Source: Botryllus schlosseri (lineage: Eukaryota). From it: a stretch of 60,000 bases of DNA. A program made the position numbers and the translations under genes. The notes under the pieces are model-generated. The model saw nothing but the letters and a program-made list of their open reading frames with translations, ran no database searches and was not told where the DNA came from. Positions within the stretch are counted from its first letter, which is position 1; each line of letters begins with the position of its first letter. Location: positions 19,842,001 to 19,902,000 of the forward strand of contig CM119372.1 in the NCBI GenBank assembly GCA_051294905.1. The letters run 5' to 3'. Below, in pieces: positions 796 through 54,230 of the stretch.

Positions 796-1411
796 TAGGG
801 CTGTACAAAAATAACTTTTTTTTCCCGATTCAAGCCGGTCACCTCTCAAATCGTCAGGTTGCAGTAGAAAACCTTGCTCACCAAATTTCACTCGATTCCA
901 ACCAGTAAAGGCCTCCGCAGATCCAATTAAAAATTTTAATTTATTATGGAAAATTAAAAAAAAAATTTCCAAATTTTTCTGCCAACCCCATGAAATTGTT
1001 GAGCTGTCTTCAAAGACGTTGCAAAACAAATTTGAGTCAATTCCGACCAGTAGAAGCGGGGTTATGTGAGTTTTTCGATGATATTTCTCGGATTATCCTT
1101 GATCGGTGGATAATCCGCGATTTATCAACGAAAAACTCACATAACTCCGCTTCTACTGGTCGGAATTGACTCAAATTTGTTTTGCAACGTCTTTGAAGAC
1201 AGCTCAACAATTTCATGGGGTTGGCAGAAAAATTTGGAAAATTTTTTTTTTAATTTTCCATAATAAATTAAAATTTTTAATTGGATCTGCGGAGGCCTTT
1301 ACTGGTTGGAATTGAGTGAAATTTGGTGAGCAAGGTTTTCTACTGCAACCTGACGATTTAAGAGGTGACCGGCTTGAATCGGGGAAAAAAAGTTATTTTT
1401 GAACAGCCTTA
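796..1411. mobile_element. Foldback MITE (hAT-type, TAGGGCTG ends), almost fully palindromic
   Basis: TAGGGCTGTACAAAAATAAC...GTTATTTTTGAACAGCCTTA; about 290-bp near-perfect inverted arms; TSD ATAACCAC/ATAACCAG. Confidence 0.9.
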
Positions 1412-1448
1412 ATAACCAGTGACCTAAATCAAATGTTTTTGCGCCTAG

Positions 1449-2053
1449 GTAAGTTTCAGATCACCGTGGAATACAATGGCAAGACTATGAACGTGCAGGA
1501 AATCGACATCAGAGACGACGCCGAATGCAGAATTCTTTACGACGAGACCATCGCGTATCAACAACCACCACCTAGTATCAACCACGTATACCTGCCGCCG
1601 GTGGATGCCCACAACGAACCGGGCCTGCACAAGATTCTAGAAAACATGAAAAGGGGAATACGCGTAACGTGCGACACCAGACGCATGCAGATCAACATCA
1701 GACGCGACTGCCTGGCTCACGCCTACTACTTCACCGTACAAGGCCCGTCGCCCGGCAGCTTACAGGCTATGAGGCGAAAACAAGAGTGCTCCGTGTTCTC
1801 GTTTGAGGTTCTAGCAAACTCGCTCTGCGAGGAACAGCTCGTGGAAGGCAGGCCTCTGCAAGCTTTAACCAGCAATATCGAGATAGTGGTCGGCGTGCAG
1901 CCGAAAGCGGATCAGTTCGGAAAGTCGGTGAAGGGCGTGAAGATAACCCTGCACTCTCTCGCAGTGGTGAAGATGCACAGCACGCCGCTGCAGTCGCACG
2001 AGGTGCTGATCAGCACACCCACGAACAGCGTGGAGCCGATGAGCTGCGAGTGA
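1449..2053 (+). CDS. IRF: Interferon regulatory factor, 3' terminal exon encoding the IRF association domain (IAD, SMAD/FHA-like); upstream exons with the DNA-binding domain not identified in the window
   Basis: Translation (G)KFQITVEYNGK..ECRILY..VYLPP..LHKILENMKRGIRV..INIRRDCLAHAYY..MRRKQECSVFSFE..IEIVVGVQP follows the IRF C-terminal pattern (LLxxLERGVLL, IYAKRLCxxRVYW, LEREQxxxVFDF). AG acceptor at 1447-1448 (alternative at 1458-1459); GC-rich coding-like composition; stop at 2051-2053. Subfamily not assignable. Confidence 0.8.
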
Positions 2054-8900: not shown

Positions 8901-11900
8901 CCGAATACATTGTCTGGTCTGGCCTAGACCGTTAAGGGGTAAGTGTATATTCCCTGATAAGTCCTTGTCGAAATTGTTGACAAAGCGATGGAAGATATTG
9001 ATTTTATGGGAATATTATATACTTTGATTGCCTCAGTTGATACATTTAGCGACGTTTAAAACGCATCATCATTGTTGCATTATGTGACCCGAGTCGTCGC
9101 TAGGTATCCTGTACAACTGTACATTAATATAGGCTATCACTTCATTGAAAGACAGGGTTGGAATTAGCAATATGATGTCACGTGACGTCATGAGGTTCAC
9201 GTTCGCGTTCACACAGAACCTTTCAAAAAGGTTCACGTTCACACGAACCTGAACCTTTCAGAGGTTCACACCATCCCTAAATGAGAACCCCTGATTTAGG
9301 CTAATGCAAGGTTGCTGAATCCGATTCCGTGCTCGGAATTTCTCTCTCACGTCAGACTTTTTCCGAATGAATTTTTCTCATTTTCATAAATTAATCAAAT
9401 TTCGGCTTCCGTTAGTGACATCACGGTAAGCATACACCAGCAAAATATCAAACATTGTTATTCAAATCACTCATTCGAATGGGTGAGTTTTAGGTAAGAT
9501 TAAACCCAGTGATTCTCTATCTTTGTTCAATAAGAAGCTCTTTTCGACCCATAAAATTACACTGGTCTACAAATTTAAAAACAAACGGCCCAAAAATTTT
9601 AGTGATCGATTTAGGCTAATATTACGCTGCTGAATCCGATTCTGTGCTCGGAATTTCTCTCTCACGTCAGACTTTTTCGGTATGTATTTTTCTCATTTTC
9701 ATAAATTAATCAAATTTCTGCTTTCGTTAGTGACATTACGGATCAAACATCAAATATTGATATTGAAATCATCTATAATAATGAAACCTGGGTGGTTGTA
9801 GAACAGCATACCTGAGTTTTCGGTGAACTTGAATCCAGGGGTTCTCTATCTTCTTTCGGTCAGGACCTCTTTTTGACCCATAAATTTATATGTGGATGCA
9901 ACTATTTTTAGTCGGTAGCAGTTATCATCTTTATATACCACTCTTCGTTTAGAGATTATGATTAGTAGCTCCGTACCTAATTTAGTTCCCTATGTTATCT
10001 ATGTTTATACATCTGTCCTGCAGACGTTATCGGTCAATGCATTTAATGACAGCATTCTGCTGTTTCGTAAAACGTAAAAGTTTGCAAACAAATAAACATT
10101 GTATTGGTGGTATATTATGTAGAAAAGAATTGTTCACTCCGGTATAGGACCCAAATATGGGGCTTGTTTTGAAACAGTAAAAGAAACAGGATGTCTACTT
10201 TTCAAAAGAAAAAGGTGCTTATCATGATAACTTGAAAGAATTTATCATCAATAATTTCCACCTTTACTTATCATGCTATCTTCTTCCCCAGTTTCCATAT
10301 ACTGATACATTTTATCCGAATCGAGGAAAGCAGTTTCTGAACTATTTTTCTTTTGGTTTATTGCAGAGATGAGCATGGATTAGGATTGGGATGAGGAAAA
10401 AACGGATTTGTGCAATTTTGTCGGGTTTGGATCGCATTAGGATTTCAGATTTTTTTGTAATGGATTAGGATTGGATTTACCGATTTTCGGGGAGATTGAT
10501 GTTCTGTGACGAATGGCGACGAGGTTTTTCGTCCTACCAAAGTTACTTCATGTACTTTGGCACTCATTATGCGTTTTATTTCTTTTTACATAATTTTAGG
10601 CATACGATGAAGGCTTTTTACGAGGCATTCCAAGTTTATATCGGATTAGGATCAGGCATGGCCTACTAAATACAGTAAGTACTGCAAGTAGCTAAAATCT
10701 ACTCGAGTACCTCGAAAAAGTAGAAATTTTCAACATTATAATATTTCAAAAACGTGATGTGACAGAGCAAAAATAACGTCGGATTCGTATTCAGCGCCCC
10801 CAAATTAGGCATACTTGACCCAAAGAAGTCCTGGCGCAAAAATCGCGTAGACCAGTGATTATTTGAAATATTCAGGTTTTCCTAGTAAGACGAATTGAAT
10901 AAACGACCCATCTATCTTTTTCGAGAACTGAAGTAGGTTTTGTCTATGCTTGTGCTACTTACACAAGTGGTTATATCTTTCGACTACTTCCGCCTCTACT
11001 TCACGTTATCCAAGGCAAATCTAATTACTTTCTACACTTTGTATTTTGTAAAGTAGAGAGTTGTGTTTCCTGAAACTAATAACGTGGATACGGACATTTG
11101 TGGCGTTGCTGATGCGTTTACTGAGTACCAACGCTGAATACCTTGACCCCCTCTGCGTATCTCATACCTGACGGGTGCAGCGATTGATCACGCGGCTTCG
11201 GCTGCTCCCGGGCCGTGTTCCACTTCTTGAAATCCGTCCTGTAATTCGTGGTGCCCGAGAACGGCTTCGACTGCGCCATTCTGACTTGCGGCTTTTTCGA
11301 CTCGGCCGGACGGCAGCGCACATGCCGGAACTCCAGCTGACTGGTCGTCTGAAGGTCTATATCTCCTGTCGGCTTCCGGTACTTGTCCATCTCGTGGCGG
11401 TACGGACGCTCCACGGGCCACGCCACGAAGCTGTCGCGGAACTCAGAAGAAGACGCGATAGGCTCATTGGACATATACTGCGTCTGCGGTGGTTTTGCGC
11501 TTTCCGCGGGCAGCGCCCTGGTGCCTTGGTACGCGTCTCGGAATGTGGTTTTCGTGTCCATGGATACCGAGGGAGCCGCGTATCGCTTGGGCTCGCGTGG
11601 AGGCCTCGGCTCGAGATTGTGTGGAACGAAATTGAGCTTGTGGATGGTCTCGCTTTGTAAAGGCACCGCGGATTGAAACGCCACATTTGGGGGTTTCGCC
11701 GATTCCCTGGGCGGTTGTATGTAGCCCACGTAGTCCTGTCGAAAGAAATGGGGAGTTAGGCGTTGACCACGGCGCGCGCCGATCGGTGTTACGTTACCCT
11801 TCTGAAAGTGGAAATGTTTTCCATTTTTTGCTCCGGCAGTTTGTACTCTCTGTTGTCCTTATAGCTTTCTCTCGGCGGCAGAGCCCATTTTTTGTAATCG

Positions 11901-14900
11901 GCTGGAATGATAAGGGGGAATTTCACGAGTTTTCGTGTAGACTGTTGGTCTTGTTGTTTATAAGACAAAAACGATGTGCTTATCACCTGTTGGTCCTCTG
12001 CACTACAGTCAATAATGGCGTACAGAAAATGACATTACATGAAATAATATTTCAGCACAATACCAAAATAAAAGCAATACTCAAAATCGTAATTGACGAT
12101 TTCAGGACAATCCAAATTCAGTGGCGCAGGGGTACCATTTTGGTCATTAAGGAGGATCGTCAGACAGAATTAGAAATTCAATTAGGCTTATTTTGCAATG
12201 AGGAATCTTAGTGGAGATCGCGTGATTTAAAGATCCGGTGCTCCTACAGGTATACAGTGATTAAGCATGCGTAAGTGTTGAGTATATTTTACGCAGAACT
12301 AGGAATGTAGATCTTGAAATGTATTCAGGGATTGGATATTGTAGATGAGGTGGCACGTCCCTGCCAATTTTTCAAATTACAAATTCGTTAAGCATCTTCT
12401 TTGCGAACACGAACACGTCACAGTGCTATAAAGTAGCACGACTTCATCGACATTTTCCATTATCACGAAGCATAGCCTTGAAGACCGTTGGTTTTGATAA
12501 CTTTCATATTTATCCTGACATAAAGCTATTCGGCGTCCAATATTAAATTAAAACCATGAAAACGTTAATTAGTATTTGCTTTCGCGTTCACGAAACACTG
12601 GATAAGTGAGTGAAAAAACGTTTTTACGCGTAATAAAATGAATTCCAGGTCTCTGCTTTTTAGAAACCAGGTCTAGACACGGAGTGAGCTGGTAGCGTAG
12701 CCAAGGGCGAAAGGCGACCCAGTCCCTTTCAAATTTTACATTGTCATTGTCACGTCATATATTTTCACTATGCCACAATGCATCTATGACGTCACATGAC
12801 GGTTAGAAAGTGTCCCACTTTCCATCCTCGAAATTATTGTCTTGGGTACGCCAATCAACCGATCATTGTCCTGCCAGTCCATAACCATATGAGATGCACT
12901 TACTTGAGTAGGTGGGTACCGCGCTGAACTTGACATTAGGAATGCTCCTCGTCTCCTGTCTGCGTGCTAACTGTGGCCTTTCTCCTTTCAAGTACGGATA
13001 GTCCTGTTGGTATACACTGACTCCCTCCATCGATTTCGAAGGGGGCTTATACGTTTCGGCAGGTCTGTAGGTCTTTTCAGGCATCGGGTATGCAACGTAG
13101 TCGTTCCTGAAAAGAAACACCACCATTTCAATTTCAATATCCAATCGCAAAAATATTTCAAACCGTGACTCACATGAATGTCGTTTGTCCTGCCATGGCG
13201 GCTTCCGATTTTCTTACATCATTGGCAGGCTTGCACGATTCCGTCCCGACCATAGGGTGTCTCGGATACTTGTCGACGTATTCCGTGATACGCGTCGGCT
13301 GTTCTCCATAGTTTAAAAACCCGGCCGGCCTCGGTCTGTACCACCTGCGTTCATAGGGCATTGGATATTCGTTTCAAGATTTATAGCTCGAGTGACTTAA
13401 CTCCATGCGCAATGATGCATGCACTGCACAACATTAGGGATACATACATTATCCTAATGGCTTCTGTACACTGCACTCTTAGCAAAAAGAGTGTGTATTC
13501 ACACCCGAAGGGCCGAAAAGGGTGGTACACGAAAACAGCACCTAACTGAGAATTATATCACGCTCATAAGTCCTACTTGCCTACGTTCATACCTTCGTAC
13601 GTTTAGTGTATGCATGATGCATAATTTGGTATAAAATGTTGTTCTCGATTTAAACGGCGGTATAAATCTGCGGTAGGTTCTGGTTTCGTGTGCCATGGGT
13701 GTATATTCACACCCGTATATCAGGGGTGGCACGCGGGTGGAAATGCACACTCTTTGCGGTAAGAGTGTGCACACAAAAACCATGCATTTCGCCGGTTTAC
13801 GCCATCCGTAGGGTGACAATCAGCCTGAGATATATATGTATATTAGTATAACCATACGGATTGGTGTATTTGATCGTATGTACCCTAGGGTTATGACTAG
13901 AAAAAAAATTACCTGTAGCAGGAATTAATGAACATTTTGGTATAAATTAATAAAATTATAATCGTTTTGTTCAAATCGAAAAAAAATGTCCCGCACAAAT
14001 TAACTTCAATTTTTGACAGTGGTCCAAATATAGAAAAAATTTACAATTCAAAGGTGTTCTTTGCTACAAATTATCTTCATATATATGTCCTTTTGCACTC
14101 CTGGTACAGTTCATCCATCAATTTGACTTCCCTTTCTGTGATTATGTTAGTGCCAGGGACATCTACAACTGACATATCCGACTTGCAATGGGATTTTTAG
14201 GCACTTTATAGCTGCAGGACATTCGAGCGCAAAGAGAGCAGCAAATAAACTTTGGTATACTCTAGAGCCCGACCGATATTGAATTTCTTGGTCGATACCG
14301 ATATCTCACACCTTGGCCGAGAACCCCAATACATTCAGCCGATATTCAAAAGAAGCTGGATATACATAAGCACATTTTCAAAGCTTCAGAGCATTTATTT
14401 GAACATCTTTGCAGCCATTGGTATACTTGAACATGAAATAAACGAGAAAGGCTACATCTGGACACCAGTTAAGTGTTAGCTATGTGACATACATCAATAT
14501 TCTCAGTTCATCGGTCAAAGATGATAGTTTTATGACTTCCTACCGCAATGTTGTGACGTCACGAAAATTGCCGATGATTTTTTAGCTTCAATGGCCGATA
14601 CTGATAATTCTTTCAAAGTGTGATATCGTCCTGATATTATCGGCGAACCGATAATAGGTCGCGCTCCAGTATATTCCATCTATGGTCATATGGTTATAAT
14701 ACCAGGCTTCCTGACACGCATTTACGATGAATAAGCATGATATCTCAAGAGTTACTCTCCATCTGGGGACTTGGAAGTACGGAATTATACCCTTAAGCTC
14801 CATCTCGCATTGCGTAGAGATGGAAGTTTATGCTATCTGATTAGTGGTAATCTACTATTTTATCTGAAAGAGCGGCACGCTCTGCACAGCACATAGATAA

Positions 14901-24656: not shown

Positions 24657-27600
24657 ATGGGATCGAGTGCTAGCAAAGGTCGGTCAAGCCTATCAATGCT
24701 GGGTTGTGTTTTTGTATTCTTGCTCAAGCCAACCGATGGTATCGCAATAATCAGAGATATGATTCGAATGAAGCATTTTTATTCTGACTCAAAACAAAAC
24801 ATAACTGCGATTAACGCGTTCTGTATAACTGTAAGTAGGATCACATATTGCGTTGTTGTGTTAACATATTATCGTTACTTCTAACTCTCGTTTGAAATCA
24901 GTTTGGTAAACCGTTCTTGACATCGGTACATCGCGATTAGAATAATACACGGAGCAAGGTCGCTATTGAACCGATCCGAGACTTCCGAATCCCTTCCTAT
25001 ATGGTTGGAGCTCTATCTAGACTCCTCATCGCCAACCGTGGCGCATAAGCGGTATCTTACAAAAGCCCATAGCCATGGTGGGCCGTGCTATAAGTATAGT
25101 GTTCGGGATTCATAATGAAGAATACCGGCCAAGTTTAAAATGACCACAGATGACGGAATACCATAAGCACTAAAACAACAACATCAGTCAACCTTGTATC
25201 TACGTTATTATTGCAGTACTTTCCGGCGGATCATCGTTGAGAACGGAATGGCGACAAATGTCCTGGGATGAACAGTAAGAAAACTTCTAATGTACCTCAG
25301 GAAATTTCTCACAGTATACGTGCCACCTATTTCTTACAGCTATAGACTGATAAAAGTCCGAGCAGACTGAGATCGCGGTATTATTTTGCGGTTGCTAAGA
25401 AATCTTTAATTATATTCAGTCTAACGTTGTCTGTATAATTGCAGCCTATTCGACGGCAGATGCGATATAGGGGTTGTAATCGTCGAAAGTTAGATTGAAA
25501 GAGGTGTAAAAATCGCTCTCTGTTTTGCAATGTAGCTCCCGCATTGTGTGAATAACCAACTGGAAATGCAAACACATTAGAAGCGTCTGTAGCGTTGCTT
25601 ATAGATTCAAATAGTGTATAGGTTCTAAGTATGGCGTGAACGTGAGGTTCGCGTGCGCGTTCTGTGTGTGAACCTAGAAAATTTAGAGGTCCACGTTCAC
25701 AAACGAACCTTGGTAGGTTCTGCACTGTGAACCTTTTTCATATATTACAATTTTCGCGTCATTATAACATCTTTGGTTAAAATTTATTGCATTTCGACTG
25801 CCTGCCACTCTATGCATGGCGTTGGCAGCATAAAAATCAACACTAAACGAGCATGCACCTTGACAATCTCAAAAATTTTACCTGCTTTGGTACAAAAGTT
25901 TGCTCAAAATATCCTGCTTTCAGTTTGTGAATATTTAGTGACCCTCCGCTGTGAGCTTGACCCGCAATCACTCAACATCAAGAGCAAAATGCGCTATACA
26001 TGTAGGTAGTCAGCGAATGATGCTTATTCAACCAATCGAAGAAATTGATATCGTTTTCAGATGTAAAAAAATATAGCAAGCGTACGGGGTCCCATCTCGA
26101 TTTCGTGTGTTTATTGTATCATAAAAAACAGATCCGTTCGATTGGGGTATTGGCTATACTGCTGTATAACTTAATTGTTAATGGGGTGGAACTCGTTTTA
26201 CACTCTGCTCAATATCAACGTTGCAAAACTCAGTCGCCGAATACATCGTCTGGTCTGGCCTAGACCGTTAGGGCGTATGCCTATATTCCCTCCCTTGCAA
26301 GTCCTCTTCGAAATTGTTGGGAAAGCGACGAAAGATATTCATTTTACGGGATTAATATATCATTTCATTGCTCCAGTTAAATACATTTGGCGACGTTTAA
26401 AAATACATTTGGCGACATTTAAAAAATCGGTATGTACTGTAGCATTGTGGCATTCTGTGCACGAGTCGTCGCTAGGTATCGTGTACATAAATACCTAACA
26501 CTTCACTGAAATGTTGGGTTGAAATTAGCAATATGACGTCACGTGACGTCATGAGGTTCACGTTCGTGTTCACTTCACACAGAACCTTTCAAAAAGGTTC
26601 GCGTTCACACGACCTGAACCTTTCCGAGGTTCACACCATCCCTAATAGGTTCGATAAAAATTAAAGTCAATTCAACCAGACGGAACGCACATGCACATTG
26701 CACAATACATATCCTAATCATCGTCAAGTGACATGACCTCACGAATGCCTGGTGTGACGTAGTGGATGAATGGCGTCATAATCGACAGGGCAAAATGTTG
26801 GAGGGGCAGTCCCGTCTTTCACTGCTCTGGCAACACCACTGTGCAATGTGCTATGTCTTCAAATATCAGCTGTCCCTTTGATTAATTGCAGTCTTCATCA
26901 TTCTTAGAACTAGATCCTCGTTGCTAGACGCAATCAAAGAATACCAGCCGTTATCGCAAGTTTGCGTTTCTGAGGCCCGCATTCTATTGCTGGGGCCTGT
27001 AAACGTTGGGAAATCTTCATTTTTCAACACCATCAATTCGATATTCCGTAACCACGTGACTGCACAAGCGCCGGTAGGAAGTCCGTTGGACCAGGCCTCG
27101 ATCACTACCAGGGTAAGGCTTCCACATGCATTATAACCGTGATGCCCTGTCTAAAGGGCGTTTTATTATAATATAACTATATGTATTTGTATCATTACCA
27201 ACTAATATATCGACTTTTCAGGGAAGCCCTGCGACGAAAACAAAGTATTCCCCTGTTGAACGTGACATTTGCCGTTAATAACGACATTAGGTTTCACAGC
27301 ATAGGTGGTCTGGATCATGTCCAATTACGCTCCGGTAATCCGAAAATAGAACGCTCCATTCATTGATGTTTTATATTGTTTATGTTGTGCTGGCGACCGG
27401 ACAGATTTGTTTTATTTTGTACGCAGCTTAGAGCATACCAGATTCGGAATGGTCGCCAGGGTAAAGTGCTGAATTTCAAGATCGTCGACACCATGGGCTT
27501 GGAAGAAGAGCGAAAACAAGGCTTTGACCCCAGCGAACTCTCGTACGTGCTCGACGGACACGTGCCTGAAAACCACCAGGTATACAACATAAATGAAATG

Positions 27601-29889
27601 GAATTATGTAAGGCGCGAAAGCGTCAACACTCTTTCCGGTCTTTCTAATAATGGCTCGAGATATCATCTGCTGGGAAATTCTAAACTCCGTCAAAGCATC
27701 GGCGACGCGGTCGGTCTATGAATAATGCAGCGATTAAACGATTAACGATTGGGCAGGAAATTAATTATTGGGCCACGCTGTAAACATAATTTGTGTGATA
27801 GGCGTCCAAGAAACACATTCAGGTCTACCGTGCACTGTGTTGTCAAGTAGTGAACTAGACGTAAACATTATACCTACTCTACAAACGATAGGGACTCCAC
27901 GCCGTGGCTATAGTTTTGCGCAGTTGTTAAATGTGAACATAATGTAATGTAATGTAATATTGCATTCGGCTAAAAGAAACACAGTTAGCGCACTGGTACA
28001 GGAAGTTAGTGAATGTTGGACGTACGACCTCCCGATGAATAGGAATAGCACGTTGTGTATTTTAGTCATTAATGTTTTTGCGGCATATACACCGACCCAT
28101 GATATACATGCCGACACAGCCGTTGTGATGGTGTCGCGACCGTTCGGTGGTTTCCTCCCGTCGTTTTCTCGCTGTATGTACGATTCTGAACGATTTGTTT
28201 ATATGTATTGCATATACAGTTGCATTTAAAACAAACATTGTTTTAAAATCACTTTGTTTCAAACATGTTTTAAACGGTGTTTTAAACAAATGCCTTTTTT
28301 ACATTGTGTTTTTTTCGAACGTTGTCTAATTATGCCGTAATTGTGTAAATACCTTCGAAAACCATGTAGTATGAGCCTACAGACGATTTGCACCCAATAT
28401 AGTCGAGGTATACGATGTGGAGTGGCTGGAACCCTCGAAATCATCGTCGATTCAGCAGTTATAGCATGTAGATATAGATGATTGGAACGGAATGGGTGTT
28501 CTGATGATGGATGAAGACCGCCGACCGTAAAAATGCTGCATGATGATGTAGTCCTGGTTAAAGATATTTTTAGTGTGTTTACGACTGCGGCCGGAAACCC
28601 TTTTCGTCGAAGGTTCCATCTATGTGCCCTTATTTTCAATTGTCAATGTCGGTACATTGTGACGTCACAATCGAAGATTAGTGACGCCGTGGCTAAAAAA
28701 ACACAATAAAGAACATGTTTTAAACCAGGGCCATGTTTTAAATATGTTTCTTTTAAATGCAACCCTAATTGGATATGTTTTGTATATCCCCAAATTAGCT
28801 GTATGAGGTGCTGGTGCTGGCAAAAATATTTGCTATAAGGGAAATCGACCAATGTTATGCTAAAAACTTCATTCGAGAATGGCGGATAAACGGTACTACG
28901 ATAACAAGTGTATTGCAATTGCATTGTCTTAACCTTGGTTGCTTCGAACGACAGCTCCATAAGTCACCATCAACTGTTGAGGTTAATGAGCATACTTGCA
29001 TTATTGATAAGAGACATTTGAGTTTTGTACCTACTCCGCAACGTTCTCTTATGGATATTTTATAAATTTATATAGGTATTAATATACATAATTCATACAA
29101 CTTAACTGAAGGTAATAAATTTTCAACGAATGGCTTCTCATGTATTATGAATATTGAATAGTCACGCTAACTCGGCGTGGAAGGAATTAACATTGTAAGT
29201 AGATATGAGGAATGGCGATAACCAGTGAAGTGCTCAGGTTCGTGCGAAATCGAACTGGTGAAAGTTCGTCGTGAGAGCGAGCTCGAACCTATGATTCCAC
29301 ATTACGAATTAGCTGGACTCGGCAAAGCGATTCCAGTATACTCGAATACTAATCCAGTAGTGCGATTCGATTTTTTATATATTTCGAGCACCCACATAAA
29401 GTGACTCAGCATTTAAGAATGATTTAATCTTAGAGAATTTTCGTTTCGATACTTTCTTCTCGGCCTGGTAGCAAAAGGCAACGTATTTCGCGGAAATGCC
29501 ATTTCTCCGAACTAATTGACCCACAGTATTGTCACAAAGGGACGTATCATTGTTTTTGGTTGATGCGAGAAACGAAACTATTTTTGAAGATCAAAGGCAT
29601 TACTGTTTTTGTGCAAAGCCAAACAATATGCTTTTATCTCTATCCACCGCTTAATTGTATTTGCAATGGTATTATTTTATTTATTTATTTTTTAATTCTT
29701 CCATGATGCTGTTTGTTGATGTTCCTAAGTTACTTTTTAATAATTTTTATTAGTTAGATGATGTGATAAATTGCTCCCGGCCGGGACTCGACTTTGAATA
29801 CTTTGTCATATCGAGCCTCCCGTCTACCTTGCATGTCTTAATATCGCCTTTCACCGAATTGCATTTTTGTTGTGTGGGATTTTGATTTT

Positions 29890-29936
<47 letters not shown>

Positions 29937-31570
29937 ATTTTCATGTTTCGTTGGTCTTGCATGTCAAATGTTATATGTTACTCGATCCGACTCGAAGCTG
30001 AATACTAGCTTCGCAAACGAATCGGTAAGGTACTCAGTACTATAGTCCTAAGTTTCTCATGTCCTCAACGTACATTGACATAGTAGACCACACCCGCCAC
30101 TGTATACCTGTTCTATACGCATGATAGTGATATATTCATGCTGGCGTGGCTAGCATGATCGTGAAAGCACTTGGATTCGCAAATACACAGCCGTGTCTAG
30201 CAGTATATTTTACATCTCCATCTCTTTATTATGTTACTATGCAGCAAAGTGTGCTAGAGTAGATTTGTTTCGTTCTGGTGATGGACTGCTCCCTTGCCGT
30301 CGACAAAATAATAGCGATCAATGAGAAGTTGAACTGTCAAGAAATTTGACCAAAGACAGGGCGCAAATTCTGCAAAGTTTTGCTGTTTTTATCCCAGAAA
30401 AGTGGCAACCTATAGTAAGGCGCTTTTGCAAACGCCAACCTCCCAATCACTACTAGCAAATATCTGCGTTTGTGGTATCACATTTGTAGATAAACAAACA
30501 GTTACGTCTAATACAAGAACTTATGCAGTCCAAAATCAGTGGAGATCGGTAACGAAGTATATACTATCATCAATGACTGAAACTGCAAAGTACCAGCAAT
30601 GTCGGATTCTTTACTATATGCCTCTCCCATGTAGCAACGTGCACGAAACATCCTAATTTGATTCCGACAAGCGTCCGCTGGCTTTGATATCATGCGTCAT
30701 TTTCTCTCCAGTTCGACAGCAAAGGGAATGTGTCGCAAGAAATGCCAGGATACATTAAACTGCCGAAGCTGTCCAATAAAATCCACTGCTGCGTGATCGT
30801 ACTGGATGCAAACAGTATCGCCTCGATGGGGGATGGCATTCAGACGAAGCTGGCTGATATAAGAGGGAAAATTACGTCGCGGGGTATGGTACTATAGCAC
30901 GGTGATAGCGAGTTAATTCAAGTTCGACGTTCGCAATCTACATGCAGGTATTCCGCTGATCGTTCTCCTTACGAAGATCGACAAAGCTTGCCCGGCGACT
31001 GCCGGCAATGTGTCGCTTGTTTACAGAAGTGCCGCCATTCAAAGCCTTGTTGCGCAAGTATGGTGTGATTATTGTTTCGATAACCATGCAGCCTAGGCTA
31101 TGTCTCGAACTGATATTAGGCACCGCACTTGATAGGCAATGAACTGATAGCCATGCTGTGGAATATAACGCAAGGTGACTGATGTAGTATATATTTTCTG
31201 CGTATCTAGAATTGAAACGTTAAACCCAGCAAAATTGAATTTGGCAGGTCACGAACATGAAGGTGGTCGCCGTTTATAGCTGGCTTTACGGACCGCGATA
31301 ATTATGTGACCTATATAGCCCGGTCTGGATGAACCCTCCAGTTTATGTATTCCTATGACCACCTTTTCGGGCTCTTCTGTAACGTTTATGTTTCAGGCCA
31401 GTATTAAGATCGGCGTGCCCGTGAGCTACATCCTGCCGGTCAAAAACTATACCCACGAAATCGAGCTTGATCCGTGGGTCGATGTTCTGGCTCTGAGCGC
31501 CGTTCAACAAATGCTGAGATTCACGGACAACTACTTCGACGAATGTTTGTCGAATACGGATACTGGGTGA
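24657..31570 (+). CDS. IFI44: Interferon-induced protein 44-like P-loop GTPase, 7 coding exons, 297 aa predicted
   Basis: Exons 24657-24678, 25217-25274, 26908-27112, 27427-27579, 30712-30883, 30948-31057, 31397-31570 join in frame (894 nt). Motifs: EWRQMSW, RILLLGPVNVGKSSFFNTINSIF (G1), DTMGLE (G3), LDGHVPENHQF, KIHCCVIVLDA, LLTKID (G4), ILPVKNYTHEIELD..DVLAL, all typical of the IFI44/IFI44L C-terminal domain. Confidence 0.92.
24950..25185 (+). mobile_element. Degenerate SINE copy (same family as 56587-56866) in an IFI44-like intron; boundaries approximate
   Basis: Shares GTTGGAG..TATCT..CTCC, GCATAAGCGGTATCTTACAAAA, GCCGTGCTA.AAGT, AAATGACCACA and an AAACAACAAC tail with the 56.6-kb SINE. 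Confidence 0.7.
25626..26644. mobile_element. Second copy of the TAGGGATGGTGTGAAC MITE, in an IFI44-like intron
   Basis: Colinear with 8294-9279; exact TSD ATAGGTTC; left TIR degenerate. Confidence 0.9.
28215..28767. mobile_element. MITE (GTTGCATTTAAAA TIR core, TGTTTTAAA repeats)
   Basis: TACAGTTGCATTTAAAA...TTTTAAATGCAACCCTA; TSD ATTGCATA/ATTGGATA; diverged partial copy at about 42443-42920. Confidence 0.78.
29893..29933. repeat. (CT)n microsatellite
   Basis: About 20 uninterrupted CT units. Confidence 0.95.
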
Positions 31571-40048: not shown

Positions 40049-40357
40049 TAGGCTTACTATAGTTTGGAAATCTAAAAAGAGGACAATTTTTCAGAAATTT
40101 GAGACTTGCAAAACCGGAGAAGAATTCTCAAAGTTCGGTGAACTTTTCCCACTTTGTGATTGGTTGACTAAAAAAAAAAAAAAAAAAGGTAAACTTTTAC
40201 GGCATATCACTCGCATCTTGCTCTAAATATGACCTAAATTTTCAAAAAAGAGGACAAAATCTCAAAAAAGAGGACAAAAGGGCGTCCTCCGTGGACACTT
40301 TCAAAAAAGTCAAAAAAGAGAACAAATCATCTTAAAAGAGGACGTATGGTAACCCTA
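40049..40357. mobile_element. Small hAT-type MITE with AAAAGAGGACA repeats
   Basis: TAGGCTTACTATA...TATGGTAACCCTA; exact TSD AAATAAAG. Confidence 0.8.
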
Positions 40358-40766
40358 AAATAAAGCATCACGCTCATGTGGATCGTCATCACTTAAAACA
40401 ATTATAAATTTATGTGGGGGTTCATAGACTTCATTTGATAACTAGGTATCGTACTACTTTCCATTGACTAACAGTTTGATCCTCGCCACTTGCCAGTCAT
40501 AGGCAGAGGAAGGTAGAGTGTGAGAGCTACTTTCCGAGACAACTATGCCCGGTTCGGACCTATACTTCTATGCGTCGGAGGTTTATCTGGGCTCCTCATC
40601 GTGGACTTCTCTGCATATGCAGTGTCGTACGAAAAGTCCAGATGAAGTAAGTAAAGTCGAGCTTACGAAAATCGGCTGCAACTGACTCTGACGAGGACGC
40701 GTGCGAGAGAGAGTGAAAGACGTGGATGAGAGAGTGACTGGAAGTCGTCCGCGGAAATCGTTTTGT

Positions 40767-47309: not shown

Positions 47310-48753
47310 GTAGCCAGTGGGGAGAAAGGTGCTCTTGATGTTCTACTCCCAAAGTTAGATTTAGTAGCTTGTGATGCCGTCATTTTGTATCGACTCTTTG
47401 TAATTAGTCATGCCGAGATGTTCTCCTCTCAACATTTTCGTTTCGGTTACGTCCATGCCTCTATTGTGATGACTTTACCTAATTGCAAATATATACCACT
47501 TGAAACGCTACCCAAAGCGCCAGCGTGCTCTCGTATGCAGCAGGTCTATTTTTATGTCAGTGAGCTTCGCGCTGATTCTGGTTGAAATTCGCTCCGAGAA
47601 CATATATCTCCTCTAGAAAGAAAAGTTACGATTGAAAAAAGAGAATGAATAGCTACATAGTGAATGTATCAATATTGCGTTTATCGATTTGGGTTGAGTT
47701 TACAGCATGCACTCAATCTATCCAGCAGAGATTGCAAAATCAATAATAAGTTCCAATATATATATAAGTAGGCATATCGAAAGATGTAAGCAAGTCTGGA
47801 TCACTGATTGTATCTTTCCAAAAATTACAAAATGCCGCTATTATTACTACAAAGAGGTACGGTTCCGAATTAATTACTGTACACCAATGTGGTTTCGAGG
47901 TCCATTACTCTTTAGAATTCTGAATGCTGCATTCATAAGTCGTGAAAATATACTGAATTGATGTACGCAGAGAGCATCTCGTTCGAAAATGAGCAAGCAC
48001 TCGATGGGAGCTTAAAATCAGCAAGTAGGCATTGATCTCAGGCTCAGACCGACTCACGTGTCTACAACCCGTGAAAAACCCATCAATTTCGTCGAGAATC
48101 AACATATAAATACCAAGCTTCGCTAGTATGCATTGTATTAAATATAATGCTATTGACAATTGCTCATACTCATAAGCAAATGTAAAGACACGAAACGGTG
48201 CCTTTTTACCCTGCCATCGGTTAAGCAATAAAGTTCAATGAGTTTGAAACGGGATTGATATGCCAAATTGGGAAACTGTGGCGAATTTCAACAATTTAAA
48301 GCAAGATTCGAGTAGCTGTCTCCTACTCTGATTATCGAGTCGGCGTTCGAAAATATTTCTAGAATCCAAAATAAAAATCGCCGAGAAATGATATCACCGC
48401 ACTACATAAATGTAGGACAGTCTCATTAGTCGCTAATATCAGAGATACGATATGATATGAAATATTAACCCAATGGCGTCTAGAAAATAACGAGTGCATG
48501 ACCGCGTTTCACTGTTCTCAACCGCAGAGCGGAGACGGAGTAAATTTTTTTCCCTTTTCTAAAAGATGAATGTGAACAAGAATATATAAGCTGATGTATA
48601 CGAAGGCAACACTACAAAGGACGAAAACCCAGTTGTAGAAATGCATGATATTCGTCTGAGTGAGGTTATGAAATACGATTTGGTTGGATCGTCACAGATT
48701 CCTTTTACATTTTCAATTTACCTTTTCAGATATATGTATCTGTAAATCCTGTG

Positions 48754-51052
48754 ATGCTTTTAAAACCAATGATGAATTCTCGTTCGATATTATTCATGCA
48801 CCACTTTTCAACAATACTATTTTTTAAGGTAAGAAACGACTATATTCTTCGAAAGGGTGTCGCTTTTTGTTGTTGTTGTTGTTGTTGTTGTAGGTTATAT
48901 TTGCTGATCAAACAATCAAAAGCCTCAATTAATTTCTCGTTAGGATCATTACCGCTACTAGATATCGGGTTGAGATGTGACCATATCAAAACTACGGGTC
49001 AGCTAATCAGCCACAAAGACGGCTAATTGCCAGTCGTTTGTATATTATTACTAAGCGGCCAGGATATCTGTTCGTGTGATGATCGGTGGTCGTTTCTACT
49101 TTCAAACTGTGATGTGATAGGATCGATTATCGTGAGGCATGCTCGTGTTAAAGACGAAGGAATTGAGTCGCAAAATTGCTTGTCACTTGTTCAATAAAGC
49201 GGTAGAAAGATATTGGGAATATTAGGTAATCCGTTCACAAAGGTGTTAGGGAAACACGTCCTTATTACTAGAATTGATACAACTGATTTTAACCGTTGAG
49301 AATTCTTGCTTTACAGACAATAACACTTGTGATATCAGCGCCGCTACAGACGCAACACAGCCGAGAAGTAAATTCCGTAACTACCTGGAACGAAGTTCAT
49401 AGCTTTGTCGCAAATCGCGTACATAAATCCGACGAATATGTATTAACATTCGAAGGATACGTTTCTGACCTGCTGGCGGCACACCCGCATCTTTCTTCAC
49501 GAGGTAAGAAAAAGTCTTGCGCAGCATGAGCCTACACACCGGCCGATGCCGTCTGTGTCATGACCACGATGATTTGGAGTAGGGATATTAGGTTGATATA
49601 TCGGTATAGCGTAATTTGTAGCTTAAATACAAACGTCTTTCTGATCACATTATAAAAACGCGCGCTAGGTTGTATCTAAAATTAAAAAATCGTTATTACG
49701 ACGATGTTTTCTATGGTGATTAGTATATACCGGTTATTATCGAAGGTTGGTTGTATAACGTAGCAGATCACGACAAGTGTATGCGTAGAGATTACAAATT
49801 TATTGTTTCTATGTTAAATGTGTCATATTTTTAGAAATTTTTCGCCGATCAAAAGAGCGATTTCCCACTCACGACGAGGACACACGAAGGACACATCACC
49901 ACGCAAGACGGGCAGTGCCAATCAGGTATAACAGCTGATTGTTACTTAGCTACATCAGATATATGTTTGCTGTCGCACATGAAATACTAAATTAGCGTCA
50001 TATCGGTTTATGAACTAGTACATGCCGACAATGTCATTACAAGTAAGCAGGTATTAAAATATCATCGCTAATTAACAAGTACTAATTATTGACTAACATA
50101 ATCTAGCATTATTTCTCATAGTTCATGATCAACAGGCCGCGCAGGCTTCAGTATAGAATGTCACGAGCGTATGATTGTCCGTGCGGAGTCCGCAGTCCAT
50201 GTAAGCACGCTATTTTAGACTGTGTTTTCATTCGGTACATAATAAAATGGCGTAGGTATACATGGCATTAGTAGTCCTTGCACCACAACAAACACGGACC
50301 GTTTACAAATATATCTTCGACACATGACTAAGCCATTAACTGATTTCATGGTAGCTGTTTTATACGAATATCGCTTTCGTAGCTTGCAATCTAGTCTCAG
50401 ATGGTATGTCGCACGAAACTATGTCTCTGACGGTAGCCGTTTGGACATGTTCAAACTCTAGAAGGATTCTTCCGCGACACATTGATAATAAACAAGACAA
50501 GAGTATGCCATAAAAGTTCGATAACATCTTTCGCAAAGTGACTATAGTGCTCGAAACATTGATATCCCATGCTAGGTGTCCCGAAGTACCTCTTTAATTG
50601 TGCAATATCTCCTGATCTGATTTCATCTACATACATATTCTATACTTCAAGGAGAGACAAAATAACGGAATTATTCACGACCGATGACTAATAACAAGTG
50701 GGCCAATCGTTTTTATGAATGACCGGATAATTTAGGTACAATACCAATGTACGTAGTATGCATGGAGTGGAGAGTATCCCATACCTCGCGGACTATTTTG
50801 TGACATTTCACAGAAACCTCTGGAAATGTTATAAAAGTAAAAGGAAAGTATCAGTTTATAATCGTGCGTCTTTATTTCAGACATGGGGACAGATATCGAT
50901 GCTGGACGAACAAAGTAACGGGTCGCATGAGGTGCGAAGTCAGGCACCGACCGTTAGACACGATCTCCATACCCAGATCGAAATCCTTCCGCCGGCCACC
51001 GCGCGGAAAACGCTCGCTTCGTAGGCAAAATTCACTCGATCCGATGTCCTAG
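48754..51052 (+). CDS. Secreted peptide precursor B (osteocrin/natriuretic-motif-like, predicted C-terminal amidation), 4 exons, about 169-174 aa
   Basis: Exons 48754-48828, 49317-49503, 49835-49925, 50881-51052 join in frame through GT-AG introns (phases 0,1,2). Hydrophobic N-terminus (..SILFMHHFSTILFFKTITLVISA/PL), dibasic site ARR, then AVPIRHGDRYRCWTNKVTGRMRCEVRHRPLDTISIPRSKSFRRPPR-GKR. Start ATG could be 48754, 48769 or 48772. Confidence 0.75.
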
Positions 51053-53565
51053 AACACTTTCCCGGCCATTTTCCGCGATGCAAAATTTGGATCACACTCA
51101 CGAGCCTCAAATTTACGCGGAACGGATTCCCCTACCCCACACGCCACTGTTATTATGTTAAAATTTGTTCGCAGTGTTGACACCAAAATATACGAGTATA
51201 TAACACTGCACACGTCGGTCGTGAATAGCTTTTCTATTATATTGATGTATTTCCTCTTTTTCGGCATCTTCATGGATTTTTGCTTGCTTGAATATTTATT
51301 GCTGAAATATAATGTCAAGAAATACTTTGTGAAATTCGTGATGACCAATGGCTCGACTCGACGCCTTTATCCACGAATGAAGGAATTTCCACACACATCG
51401 GTTTTGTGAATCAAGACAGGGAGTGCAATCCTCGACTGCTCACAGCGTCTGCCTCTCCAATCCTGGGCTCTTCCACATTTTACTCATTTTCCAATTTAAG
51501 AGATTGGGCTTTAATCTGAATGACATGCCATTAGGGCTTCTCCAGGAACAACATTAGCTGCTGGGCTGACAAGCAGGAATCTGGTCAGATCCAGAATAGC
51601 TTTAGTCAGGGGCTATGTTCGGTAGATTGTTCAGCATTTCGGTTTACCAATTGTTGTCGCAGTGGTGGGGGTAGTATATAGTGTACCTTCCACATCTCAA
51701 ACGTTATTTGCGAGGCAGGCATAGGTTGACTCAAGAATTTCCACTTAATTGTTGGAAGTTCATCTGGGCTCCTTCTCGTCATCTGATACGCCTAAGCGGG
51801 TCGTGCTGAAAGTCGGCAGGTCAGGAATCATGAAGAACAATCGATCAGGTGCAAAATTACCAGTGCAGTCAAAACACCATGACTGCAATAACAACAACAG
51901 CAACACCAGTTTAATAATTAAGCTTTATGATGTGTTTATAAGAAGCCGTAAATTTTAACCCTTATATAAGCAAGGCGTGAAAACACGCAGCATTCTGACA
52001 ATCATCTGGGCACATTTTTAGTTCGCTTTTCTGTCATCTCTTCCACGCTACAGTCGAACCATTTTACGTAAGAAAACTGATGATTTCTTGCTTTTTATCA
52101 GCTATGCTTGTTTTTGAGTATTTGGGGAAGATTTGTGTGTTGATTTTGCCTATCCACAATTTATCAATTTATATTAAAATGAATACTATTTATTTCCATC
52201 CATGGCAGGAATTTGATCAATTTGTTTTCTAAACTTCAAATTTACATGGGCACCAATTATTTTAGTAAACTTGTTAGTAGAACTTCGTTTTTGGTTTATT
52301 TAGTTTTACTCGGTTCAGTCGACATTTAACATGTCTTTAATCGCGACTATATATGAAATCAAAATCATGTTTTGCGGCCGTGATTTAGGTGTCACGTTAC
52401 AGGATAGATAATGGTAAACTAACCTGCACTCATCAAAATATTTACGTTTGTTCGGTATGTTTATGCCAACGAGAAGTGGAATTTATAAGATACTTTGATG
52501 AGAAGAAACACCAAGTCACGTTTAAAATAAATTCTGGGTTTTCTTAACATGGAACTAGATTTGTGATTGCAGTGTAATACCGATATAGCTTAGGCGCTTA
52601 TTCGGGGTTTTGACGTATGGTTAGATAAAGACATTTCTGACATTTACTACGATTAGGTATAAGAGAATATTCTGGATTCTACCGAATGAAACGACAATTT
52701 CACATCACCCTCGCGTAATTACGACGTCAAATCAAATAAGAGACAACGAACGTATTGTGAATCATCGTTGAAATTGCCTCGGAACCCTGGAAATTGGGCA
52801 GCATTTTTATAAATGAATTAATGTTATTGCGCAAAAATCCGCGATTGGGATCTTGCACAGTGCTAATATTAGAATGCGGTTAGCGGCGATACTCTGCTCC
52901 TCCGGGCCATATTTGATAGCACCTTTATGGCATTAGGAGAAAAGAGTCGAGATTCTTAACCAGTCACTCCTATAGTCTGGTTTTCCAGCGGTTATACACT
53001 CTAACCTTTCGATCTTGACACAGTAAGTCCGACACGGTTGATCTTTATTATATATAATAATAAATCCATTAAAGACATATATATTATATAAATATACAGT
53101 GCTACTTTGAAGAAAAGTTACGCAAGAATGTTTATGGAGAATGCCACTTCTTAGATACTATCTGTCCCCTTACGAAGTGGGTCCCTCTTGGTAGCCATGC
53201 GACGCGATATTAAGGTGTCGATTATGACCAGGAAATAAATATCGATGTTTTGTTGGTCAGCGGAAAAGAAAAGTACAGTGTAATGGCAACCGGGAACACA
53301 AACATCTATTCGGCTATACGATGAGCCTAACCAAGCGTGTATGACGAGGGTATGTTTTGCTTATAGCTTGTTGAGCATGGCATGCGATCTGTACCACCGC
53401 ACTAATGAGGGTCATCTATATGCTACTCGCATTGCTCATAGTGCATGTGTTGTGCAAATGTATCTGCCTTTATGTAAAAAGTAATGTTCCAACAGCGTTC
53501 ACAGTAACGGAAGACGACGGACAAGTATACGATGAAAAGTTCGCAGATTTCCACGTTTTCCCAGG

Positions 53566-54230
53566 TTAAATTCGTTGATAGCGATGGTTTCGTCTGTTAG
53601 GTCTACATCCGAAAAATTTGTTGTTCGAGATAAAGTCCAGAGGAGCTCCGAAGCCGCACTTTGCGATGCAAACCGCTCGCTTATTATACGCGCATATATA
53701 CCGATGTCCGTTGGCCTGTCTCTTGCGCTTGTGAAGTCGCGGCAATAAGGACGCTGAACGGAAGATATAGGGAATTACTAGACCGATCCAACTTGGCGAC
53801 GCGACATTTCAACGCCCCTTATCAGTTTCATTTTACACTCACCCGCTGAGCCTACGTAGTACCAGTCGTAATTTTGGAAGCTACTGATTGGCGTCGGCGG
53901 TACGTCTTCGTAATCGGGTAATAGCACCTTTGATTTCATAATCGTGGGGTAGTTTTCGACGATTCTTCTCAGCAGCGTAGGCACTTGCGATGATCGGCCC
54001 GGATTCTGCAAAGCGCGATGTCAATCATTAACATCTATTCCTTTCATGGTGGTATTAGACTGTGAACTACTGTAAATTATCTCCTTTTGTTCGCAACGAA
54101 AGTTTCGCTATTTATAGTTTGTGGATCTATATTTACATGCAGCAATACTTACATGGAAATCATTACGCTTGGCAGAAGCGCAAACGATGAGCTGCACCAG
54201 TACGATCCAAATCAGAGATTTCGCGTTCAT
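53566..54230 (-). CDS. Secreted peptide precursor A, natriuretic peptide/osteocrin-like, 3 exons, 142 aa
   Basis: Exons 54230-54153, 54005-53843, 53753-53566 join in frame (donors gtaagt and gtgagt; acceptors ttgcag and ttcag). Protein: MNAKSLIWIVLVQLIVCASA-KRNDFHNPGRSSQVPTLLRRIVENYPTIMKSKVLLPDYEDVPPTPISSFQNYDWYYVGSAASLLPRLH-KRKR-QANGHRYICAYNKRAVCIAKCGFGAPLDFISNNKFFGCRPNRRNHRYQRI*. It has a signal peptide, a furin-type site and a Cys-ringed FGxxLDxI motif. Confidence 0.85.

Follow-up and report, generated by a model that had tools for sequence, protein, structure and literature searches.

A probable secreted-peptide precursor of Botryllus schlosseri and its likely origin as a duplicate of a neighbouring natriuretic/osteocrin-like gene

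The window analysed here, a stretch of 60,000 nucleotides of Botryllus schlosseri DNA, holds two small convergent genes. Gene B lies on the forward strand and gene A, 2.5 kb downstream of it, has three coding exons and encodes 142 amino acids. In the window DNA, four exons of gene B join into a coding frame of 525 nt (174 amino acids and a stop codon). Exon 1 (48754..48828, +) supplies the first 25 codons, which form a putative signal peptide, and ends in a phase-0 donor. Exon 2 (49317..49503, +) completes the putative signal peptide before entering the pro-region and has a phase-1 donor, and exon 3 (49835..49925, +, phase-2 donor) carries pro-region with three RR sites and the start of the predicted mature peptide. 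Exon 4 (50881..51052, +) encodes the C-x10-C cysteine pair of a predicted beta-hairpin (50900..50935, +), the PLDTIS motif common to the A family (50951..50968, +), an Arg/Pro-rich tail, a GKR signal, and a short C-terminal piece that ends at the stop codon. A 3' UTR follows (51053..51350, +), its extent given as far as reads show.

The in-frame splicing of four exons, proposed for this DNA by an earlier, sequence-only reading, is borne out at the DNA level: the exons have AG/GT flanks, the introns are all GT-AG with phases 0, 1, and 2, and the frame is open over 174 amino acids. The acceptor at 50880 is strong, and exon 4 read in its other two frames yields 47 or 11 residues from which the motifs are absent. 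The same reading held that RYxCxxNK and PLDxIS are common to A and B, and a six-frame reading of the 60 kb window indeed finds each motif in frame only in these two genes. Genome-wide, the two-motif pattern has four matches, namely A, B, and two in which PLD is out of frame. B is almost certainly a real coding gene, and the four-exon model as given is very likely correct.

Twenty-four bases 5' of the gene B ATG, a strong polypyrimidine tract ends in an AG (48700-48729). After it comes a three-codon upstream frame with no in-frame stop between the AG and the ATG; judged by its letters, the tract could mark either a trans-splice acceptor or an untranslated exon farther upstream. Elsewhere in the window, an exon at 1403-2053 (+) encodes the IRF-3 (SMAD/IAD) domain of an interferon regulatory factor (Pfam E 1e-10), exons at 11118-13213 (-) encode a SAXO1/2 microtubule stabiliser (Pfam E 1.3e-19, one exon tested), and exons at 26882-31570 (+) encode a P-loop GTPase that resembles MMR_HSR1 below the cut-off and that we take to be like IFI44/IFI44L. 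Between 10 and 40 kb beyond the window end (L012-L014, -), reading by eye finds a multi-exon extracellular protein with a vWA domain and many thrombospondin-1-like and sushi-like exons. An intron-containing cellulose synthase, which marks the genome as that of a tunicate, is located at 15.03 Mb of C9 (L004). A Lys/Arg-rich frame recurs at several loci, among them 40238-40360 (+) and L035:4936-5280; as a gene, the frame at 40238-40360 was rejected, being part of an interspersed repeat.

Gene B is transcribed and at least partly spliced. RNA evidence comes from the reads of 4 of the 24 listed runs, which were placed on the window (X1, X2, X17, and X21). A 200-nt contig of X1, a run of RNA-type contigs whose RNA status is our guess, joins exons 2 and 3 across a 331-nt GT..AG gap (49501-49833) at a depth of 2.4. 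Among the raw RNA reads of X17, 69 fall on the whole window, with a depth of about 2 on gene B: the bins of exons 1-4 and of the 3' UTR are covered, and wholly intronic bins are at zero depth. Four reads lie over 48817 in exon 1, and the depth in the next bin is 0.12 over 211 bases, a fall that is as expected if the four reads stop at the donor. The X17 reads on exon 4 run from 50932 onward, leaving its first 51 nt uncovered, and no splice joint was seen for intron 1 or intron 3 in the four runs examined. Of the three introns for which RNA support had been called for, intron 2 is therefore observed as spliced, and introns 1 and 3 have no observed joint. With the joint of exons 3 and 4 unseen and the start of exon 4 uncovered, the connection of the precursor exons with the mature exon is one that we infer. 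The X2 reads fall on gene A only, with none on gene B, and no X21 read falls on the window at all. Three coding variants are listed in gene B, two of them synonymous and one altering the pro-region, and five allelic differences lie at 51061-51167 in its 3' UTR.

The B precursor has RR at residues 91, 105, and 112 and RGKR at 159. Its predicted mature part starts after ARR and ends before GKR, as previously claimed and now found in the spliced frame; it comprises residues 114-159 (46 amino acids) and has a net charge of +10 (K+R minus D+E). The putative signal peptide is weak, with a best 12-residue Kyte-Doolittle mean of 2.07 versus 2.97 for A, a Lys within the hydrophobic stretch, and two His ahead of it; from the sequence, the cut is likely near VIS/AP. 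Cleavage at dibasic sites, trimming, and amidation are the standard chemistry of convertases, carboxypeptidases, and amidating enzymes. The B precursor would be secreted, a prohormone convertase would cut it at RGKR and at one of the three RR sites, and the product would be trimmed and then amidated to give a PPR-amide end. That B is secreted and processed is, in our judgement, probable.

A single-sequence model of the exon-4 peptide has strands at residues 4-9 and 16-21, with a pLDDT of 73-82 over residues 1-20. We read the predicted strand register as setting Cys7 opposite Cys18, which would allow a cross-strand pair, and the modelled hairpin as having one Arg-rich and one apolar face. PLDTIS sits outside the C-x10-C pair, in a low-confidence, unstructured tail of the model. 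The description of B as ring-less therefore stands in the sense that no Cys pair surrounds PLDTIS and no Cys follows it. The peptide is not linear, given the predicted C-x10-C hairpin. The absence of FG from B is confirmed, GFG, which is invariant in A, being missing. The mature product would be a cationic beta-hairpin with one disulfide and a flexible tail carrying PLDTIS. Fold searches with B gave no significant match, and no family emerged for A or B from the Pfam, PDB sequence, Atlas, or fold searches.

A peptide of this kind could serve host defence. B would then be a secreted cationic peptide with a hairpin and a Pro/Arg-rich amidated tail, perhaps derived from an A-like gene, and PLDTIS would be a leftover. 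The charge of +10 in 46 residues and the predicted hairpin with its Arg-rich and apolar faces are what such a peptide would have, and the absence of a B ortholog fits fast evolution. Haemocyte peptides are usually abundant, whereas the read depth of B is very low (about 2) in the one informative raw run. The accessible text of PMC10608444 describes disulfide hairpins and amidation as common in marine antimicrobial peptides, with the ascidian clavanins and styelins amidated, a precedent in favour of this function; the ascidian peptides described in that text are helical, however, and not hairpins. PLDxIS has also been kept in B while flanking residues changed, and no fold match ties B to such peptides. 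Taken together, we regard a host-defence role as unlikely.

Gene A lies on the reverse strand. Its first coding exon (54153..54230, -) encodes a strong signal peptide, and the transcript reaches upstream to about 54540. Exon 2 (53843..54005, -) encodes the pro-region, is homologous to a Styela protein, and has both of its flanking joints seen in RNA; both gene A introns are thus observed as spliced in the RNA runs. Exon 3 (53566..53753, -) encodes a KRKR site and then a mature peptide with the cysteine frame C-x7-C-x3-C-x16-C and GFGAPLDxIS. Nine coding variants occur in gene A, and the three in the mature peptide are all synonymous. The nearest named relative is Styela clava XP_039267199.1 (uncharacterized LOC120342433). 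A profile of A and B searched against 1.84 billion representative proteins has three matches: this Styela protein; P0003, a Logan protein from one other transcriptome; and a bacterial protein of repetitive sequence, set aside as chance. The third match of a search with a five-row alignment, P0005, is a fragment that reads into an intron and is almost the same as A, and it was rejected as a B homolog. Orthologs of A were found in two other sources only, Styela clava and P0003.

All three A-family proteins share the four Cys, GFGAPLDxIS, FGC, and a terminal QRI as invariant features, and a PxLLxR in the pro-region is conserved. P0003 carries PLDTIS exactly as B does, and the position of the natriuretic Arg is variable in the family (F, Q, or T). 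A and the Styela protein are identical at 32 of 49 positions in the mature peptide and at 29 of 84 in the pre-pro part, so the mature peptide is the better conserved. By sequence, the C-x16-C segment of A resembles natriuretic and osteocrin motifs. The structure model of A (mean pLDDT 53) is too weak to assign its disulfides, and the natriuretic-type ring between C3 and C4, on which the osteocrin analogy leans, is an assumption. Neither A nor its ring matches any solved natriuretic peptide, and they have no profile support; the Atlas gives a generic neuropeptide-precursor likeness only (top 0.84). The Pfam ANP profile PF00212 matches none of B exons 2 and 4, A exons 2 and 3, P0001, and P0003, and two weak genome matches to it, one on C6 and one on C5, were discarded as unconvincing once their frames had been read. 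The Musclin profile PF11037 does not match B exons 2 and 4, and a genome search with it gave no match, with the positive control likewise silent. On balance, we lean slightly towards a true relationship between the A family and natriuretic peptides or osteocrin, for which gene A is a stronger candidate than B.

Several comparisons bear on whether B is a paralog of A. When the mature regions are compared without gaps they share 14 identities, a count reached by none of 20,000 shuffles in a test that was picked after the alignment had been seen. Among 8,914 frame pieces in 260 kb, the last exon of B is the best non-self ungapped match to the A mature peptide, with 15 identities against 13 for the next. 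The ungapped counts of B against the Styela protein and P0003 are both weak, being reached by 1,654 and 179 of 20,000 shuffles, respectively. In global alignments of B with A, Styela, and P0003, 21, 1, and 13 of 5,000 full shuffles score as high, and 76, 11, and 241 of 5,000 do so when the signal, pro, and mature parts are shuffled separately; the whole-length alignment with the Styela A protein is collinear. The pre-pro parts alone have little likeness to B, with 2,681 (A), 216 (Styela), and 1,832 (P0003) of 5,000 shuffles scoring as high. Gapped local BLOSUM scores of A and B are reached by 345 and 337 of 20,000 shuffles (p about 0.02), and several unrelated window pieces score as high as or above them. 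Under an HMM built from the mature peptides of the three A-family proteins, B scores 3.5 bits, a value that 93 of 5,000 shuffles reach, and it ranks outside the top 12 of the 8,914 pieces.

At the level of gene structure, the first two intron phases of A and B are the same, while the intron positions are unaligned. No likeness between A and B was found at the DNA level, the second Cys of B aligns exactly with neither C2 nor C3 of A, and no further paralog was found in the genome. No B ortholog was found among longer proteins, among the 1.84 billion representative proteins searched with the A+B profile, with the five-row alignment, or in metagenome contigs. In the 3' UTR of gene A, in antisense, a 38-residue piece (53228-53341, +) has YRC and C-x10-C and scores 39 against the last exon of B, versus 35 for A. 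We treated this piece as a chance match, as it has neither the PLD motif nor a good acceptor.

Compared with the styelid A family, B has the PLDxIS core, the first Cys, and a collinear precursor; the RYxCxxNK start is common to A and B, and PLDxIS is equally far from NK in both. B has two Cys rather than four and does not have the C-x7-C-x3-C-x16-C frame, GFGA, FGC, or the QRI end, and relative to gene A it has one extra intron and an added GKR amidation signal. Residue matches, adjacency, and the common layout make paralogy likely, though the residues are few and the tests of unequal strength, and B is in our view a probable paralog, or diverged duplicate, of A. The claim that B is a relative of A thus holds up on the best ungapped match and less well on the marginal gapped scores, the weak HMM result, and the absence of an ortholog. 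A very unlikely alternative is that B is unrelated to A or mis-modelled, with exon 4 belonging to another transcript or B being a decaying, lineage-restricted copy, and with the common residues due to chance. The unseen joint of exons 3 and 4, the 5' end of exon 4 bare of reads, the marginal gapped scores, the antisense piece that beats A against B, and the missing ortholog are compatible with it. The frame that stays open through three introns, the strong acceptor at 50880, the GKR signal, the synonymous variants, and the top ungapped rank argue against it.

The genome encodes candidate receptors for such ligands, with 15 ANF-receptor matches in a profile search. The best of them lies at 15.72 Mb of C5, and its top match among solved structures is NPR-C (E 1.2e-10), with NPR-A weaker (3.5e-8). 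This NPR-C-like receptor gene (C5 15.718-15.726 Mb, L035:1104-8563, -) is cyclase-less, with an ectodomain split over exons, one transmembrane helix, and a short tail: its downstream exons encode the transmembrane helix, then about 55 residues of tail up to a stop, and none of the 38 cyclase matches in the genome is within 1.2 Mb. A receptor guanylyl cyclase on C9 (17.858-17.875 Mb, L039-L040, +) has an ANF ectodomain and kinase-like and cyclase exons. The likeness of both receptors to NPR types is a matter of sequence matches. As far as sequence likeness goes, the presence of an NPR-C-like receptor in the same genome gives the osteocrin analogy real support.

The most likely job of B would be that of a second ligand in the receptor system of A. 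Its PLDTIS tail would bind an ectodomain of the natriuretic-receptor type without the ring needed to turn on the cyclase, most plausibly that of the cyclase-less, NPR-C-like receptor. B would compete there with A for clearance, so that the A signal would be prolonged or shaped, as by osteocrin in vertebrates, and the basic hairpin might hold the peptide on matrix sugars near its source. Given that the Arg position varies in the A family, the absence of this Arg from B need not matter in ascidians, while the loss of the invariant GFG may. The proposal that B is an A-derived duplicate, secreted as an amidated hairpin-plus-tail that acts in the A receptor system in an osteocrin-like way, is tentative, and its narrower form by analogy, in which B is a decoy at the NPR-C-like receptor specifically, is doubtful. 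A further step, that ascidians hold a whole natriuretic module of ringed agonist A, receptor cyclase, cyclase-less clearance receptor, and ring-free decoy B, seems rather improbable.

Alternatively, B and possibly also A could be an ascidian-specific signal whose receptor is a different receptor cyclase or a GPCR, with PLDxIS resembling natriuretic peptides by convergence. The putative ring of A is C-x16-C, has no Arg, and comes with two extra Cys, and it may not be the natriuretic one, its disulfide pairing resting on a low-confidence model. Profile support is absent and the Atlas likeness generic. MTHFR, which is a neighbour of vertebrate NPPA, is on C11, a different contig from A and B; a genome search for Dishevelled was blank, with its control likewise not working. 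Against convergence, F, D, I, and G-C are all present in the invariant part of A, at natriuretic spacing save one extra residue, and natriuretic-type receptors are present in the genome. We consider the ascidian-specific signal somewhat unlikely.

We found no paper on A or B, nor on any natriuretic or osteocrin-like precursor of tunicates, in a literature coverage that excludes subscription journals, which are rich in ascidian peptidomics. In the available part of PMC6878697, a C-x(12-18)-C candidate is described from a single-exon gene of Ciona, and orthology of candidates of this kind is regarded as improbable; the Ciona candidate is unlikely to be an A ortholog. A natriuretic peptide in a Ciona single-cell paper is not borne out in the main text of PMC6169837 as far as accessible, and the accessible main text of PMC13364575 does not mention natriuretic peptides, osteocrin, or Styela. 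The accessible portions of PMC4992253, PMC6838683, PMC9014859, and PMC9219612 provide background, and no motif sequence was found in them. B is a real, undescribed ascidian peptide-precursor gene and probably a duplicate of a conserved natriuretic/osteocrin-like precursor. If the osteocrin-like reading is true, either the natriuretic/osteocrin split is older than vertebrates, or the osteocrin trick has two separate origins through duplication and ring loss. In that case A, whose GFGxPLD has osteocrin-like spacing and sits within a disulfide ring, would be similar to the common ancestor. Two expressed precursors in the sister group of vertebrates, together with two candidate receptors, make the origin of natriuretic peptides and osteocrin directly testable. 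Gene A carries most of this weight, and what B contributes is the question of whether a decoy ligand arose early or twice.

Among known systems, the beta-hairpin antimicrobial peptides of the tachyplesin and arenicin class are cationic hairpins with a cross-strand Cys pair, which B resembles by prediction, and predicted amidation is a likeness to ascidian clavanin and styelin. B differs from the hairpin peptides in having no sequence or fold match, a long pro-region of 81 amino acids, and a conserved hormone-like motif. With ANP, BNP, and CNP, B has in common the Asp-x-Ile core and a prepro-hormone layout in which the mature peptide is C-terminal. Natriuretic peptides have a 17-residue disulfide ring, C-x15-C, with a conserved Phe2 and Asp7-Arg8-Ile9, according to the accessible text of PMC12343078. 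B has no such ring and no Phe2, has Thr in place of Arg8, is predicted to be amidated, and gave no PDB match to natriuretic peptides; A differs in that its ring is C-x16-C. Osteocrin, in the portion of PMC11291853 available, has two natriuretic-like motifs and binds NPR-C, not NPR-A/B, via motifs like the ring interior, slowing clearance. Like osteocrin/musclin (OSTN), B has its natriuretic-like motif, PLDTIS, outside any disulfide enclosure, and its precursor, with RR and RGKR sites and a weak putative signal peptide, may likewise be secreted and cut at basic sites. The osteocrin motif, which we take to be FGxPLDRL, is close to FGAPLDxI of A and partly like PLDTI of B. The analogy with osteocrin drawn by the sequence-only reading is strengthened by the NPR-C-like receptor and by PLDxIS being invariant in three of three A proteins; it is weakened by the single PLDxIS in place of two motifs, the lack of Phe-Gly and Arg, the absence of a Pfam match or an ortholog, and the added disulfide hairpin, which makes the peptide not linear. 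As defined by the ring, the two motifs, and Pfam, B falls outside both the natriuretic and the osteocrin families, yet it may work like osteocrin.
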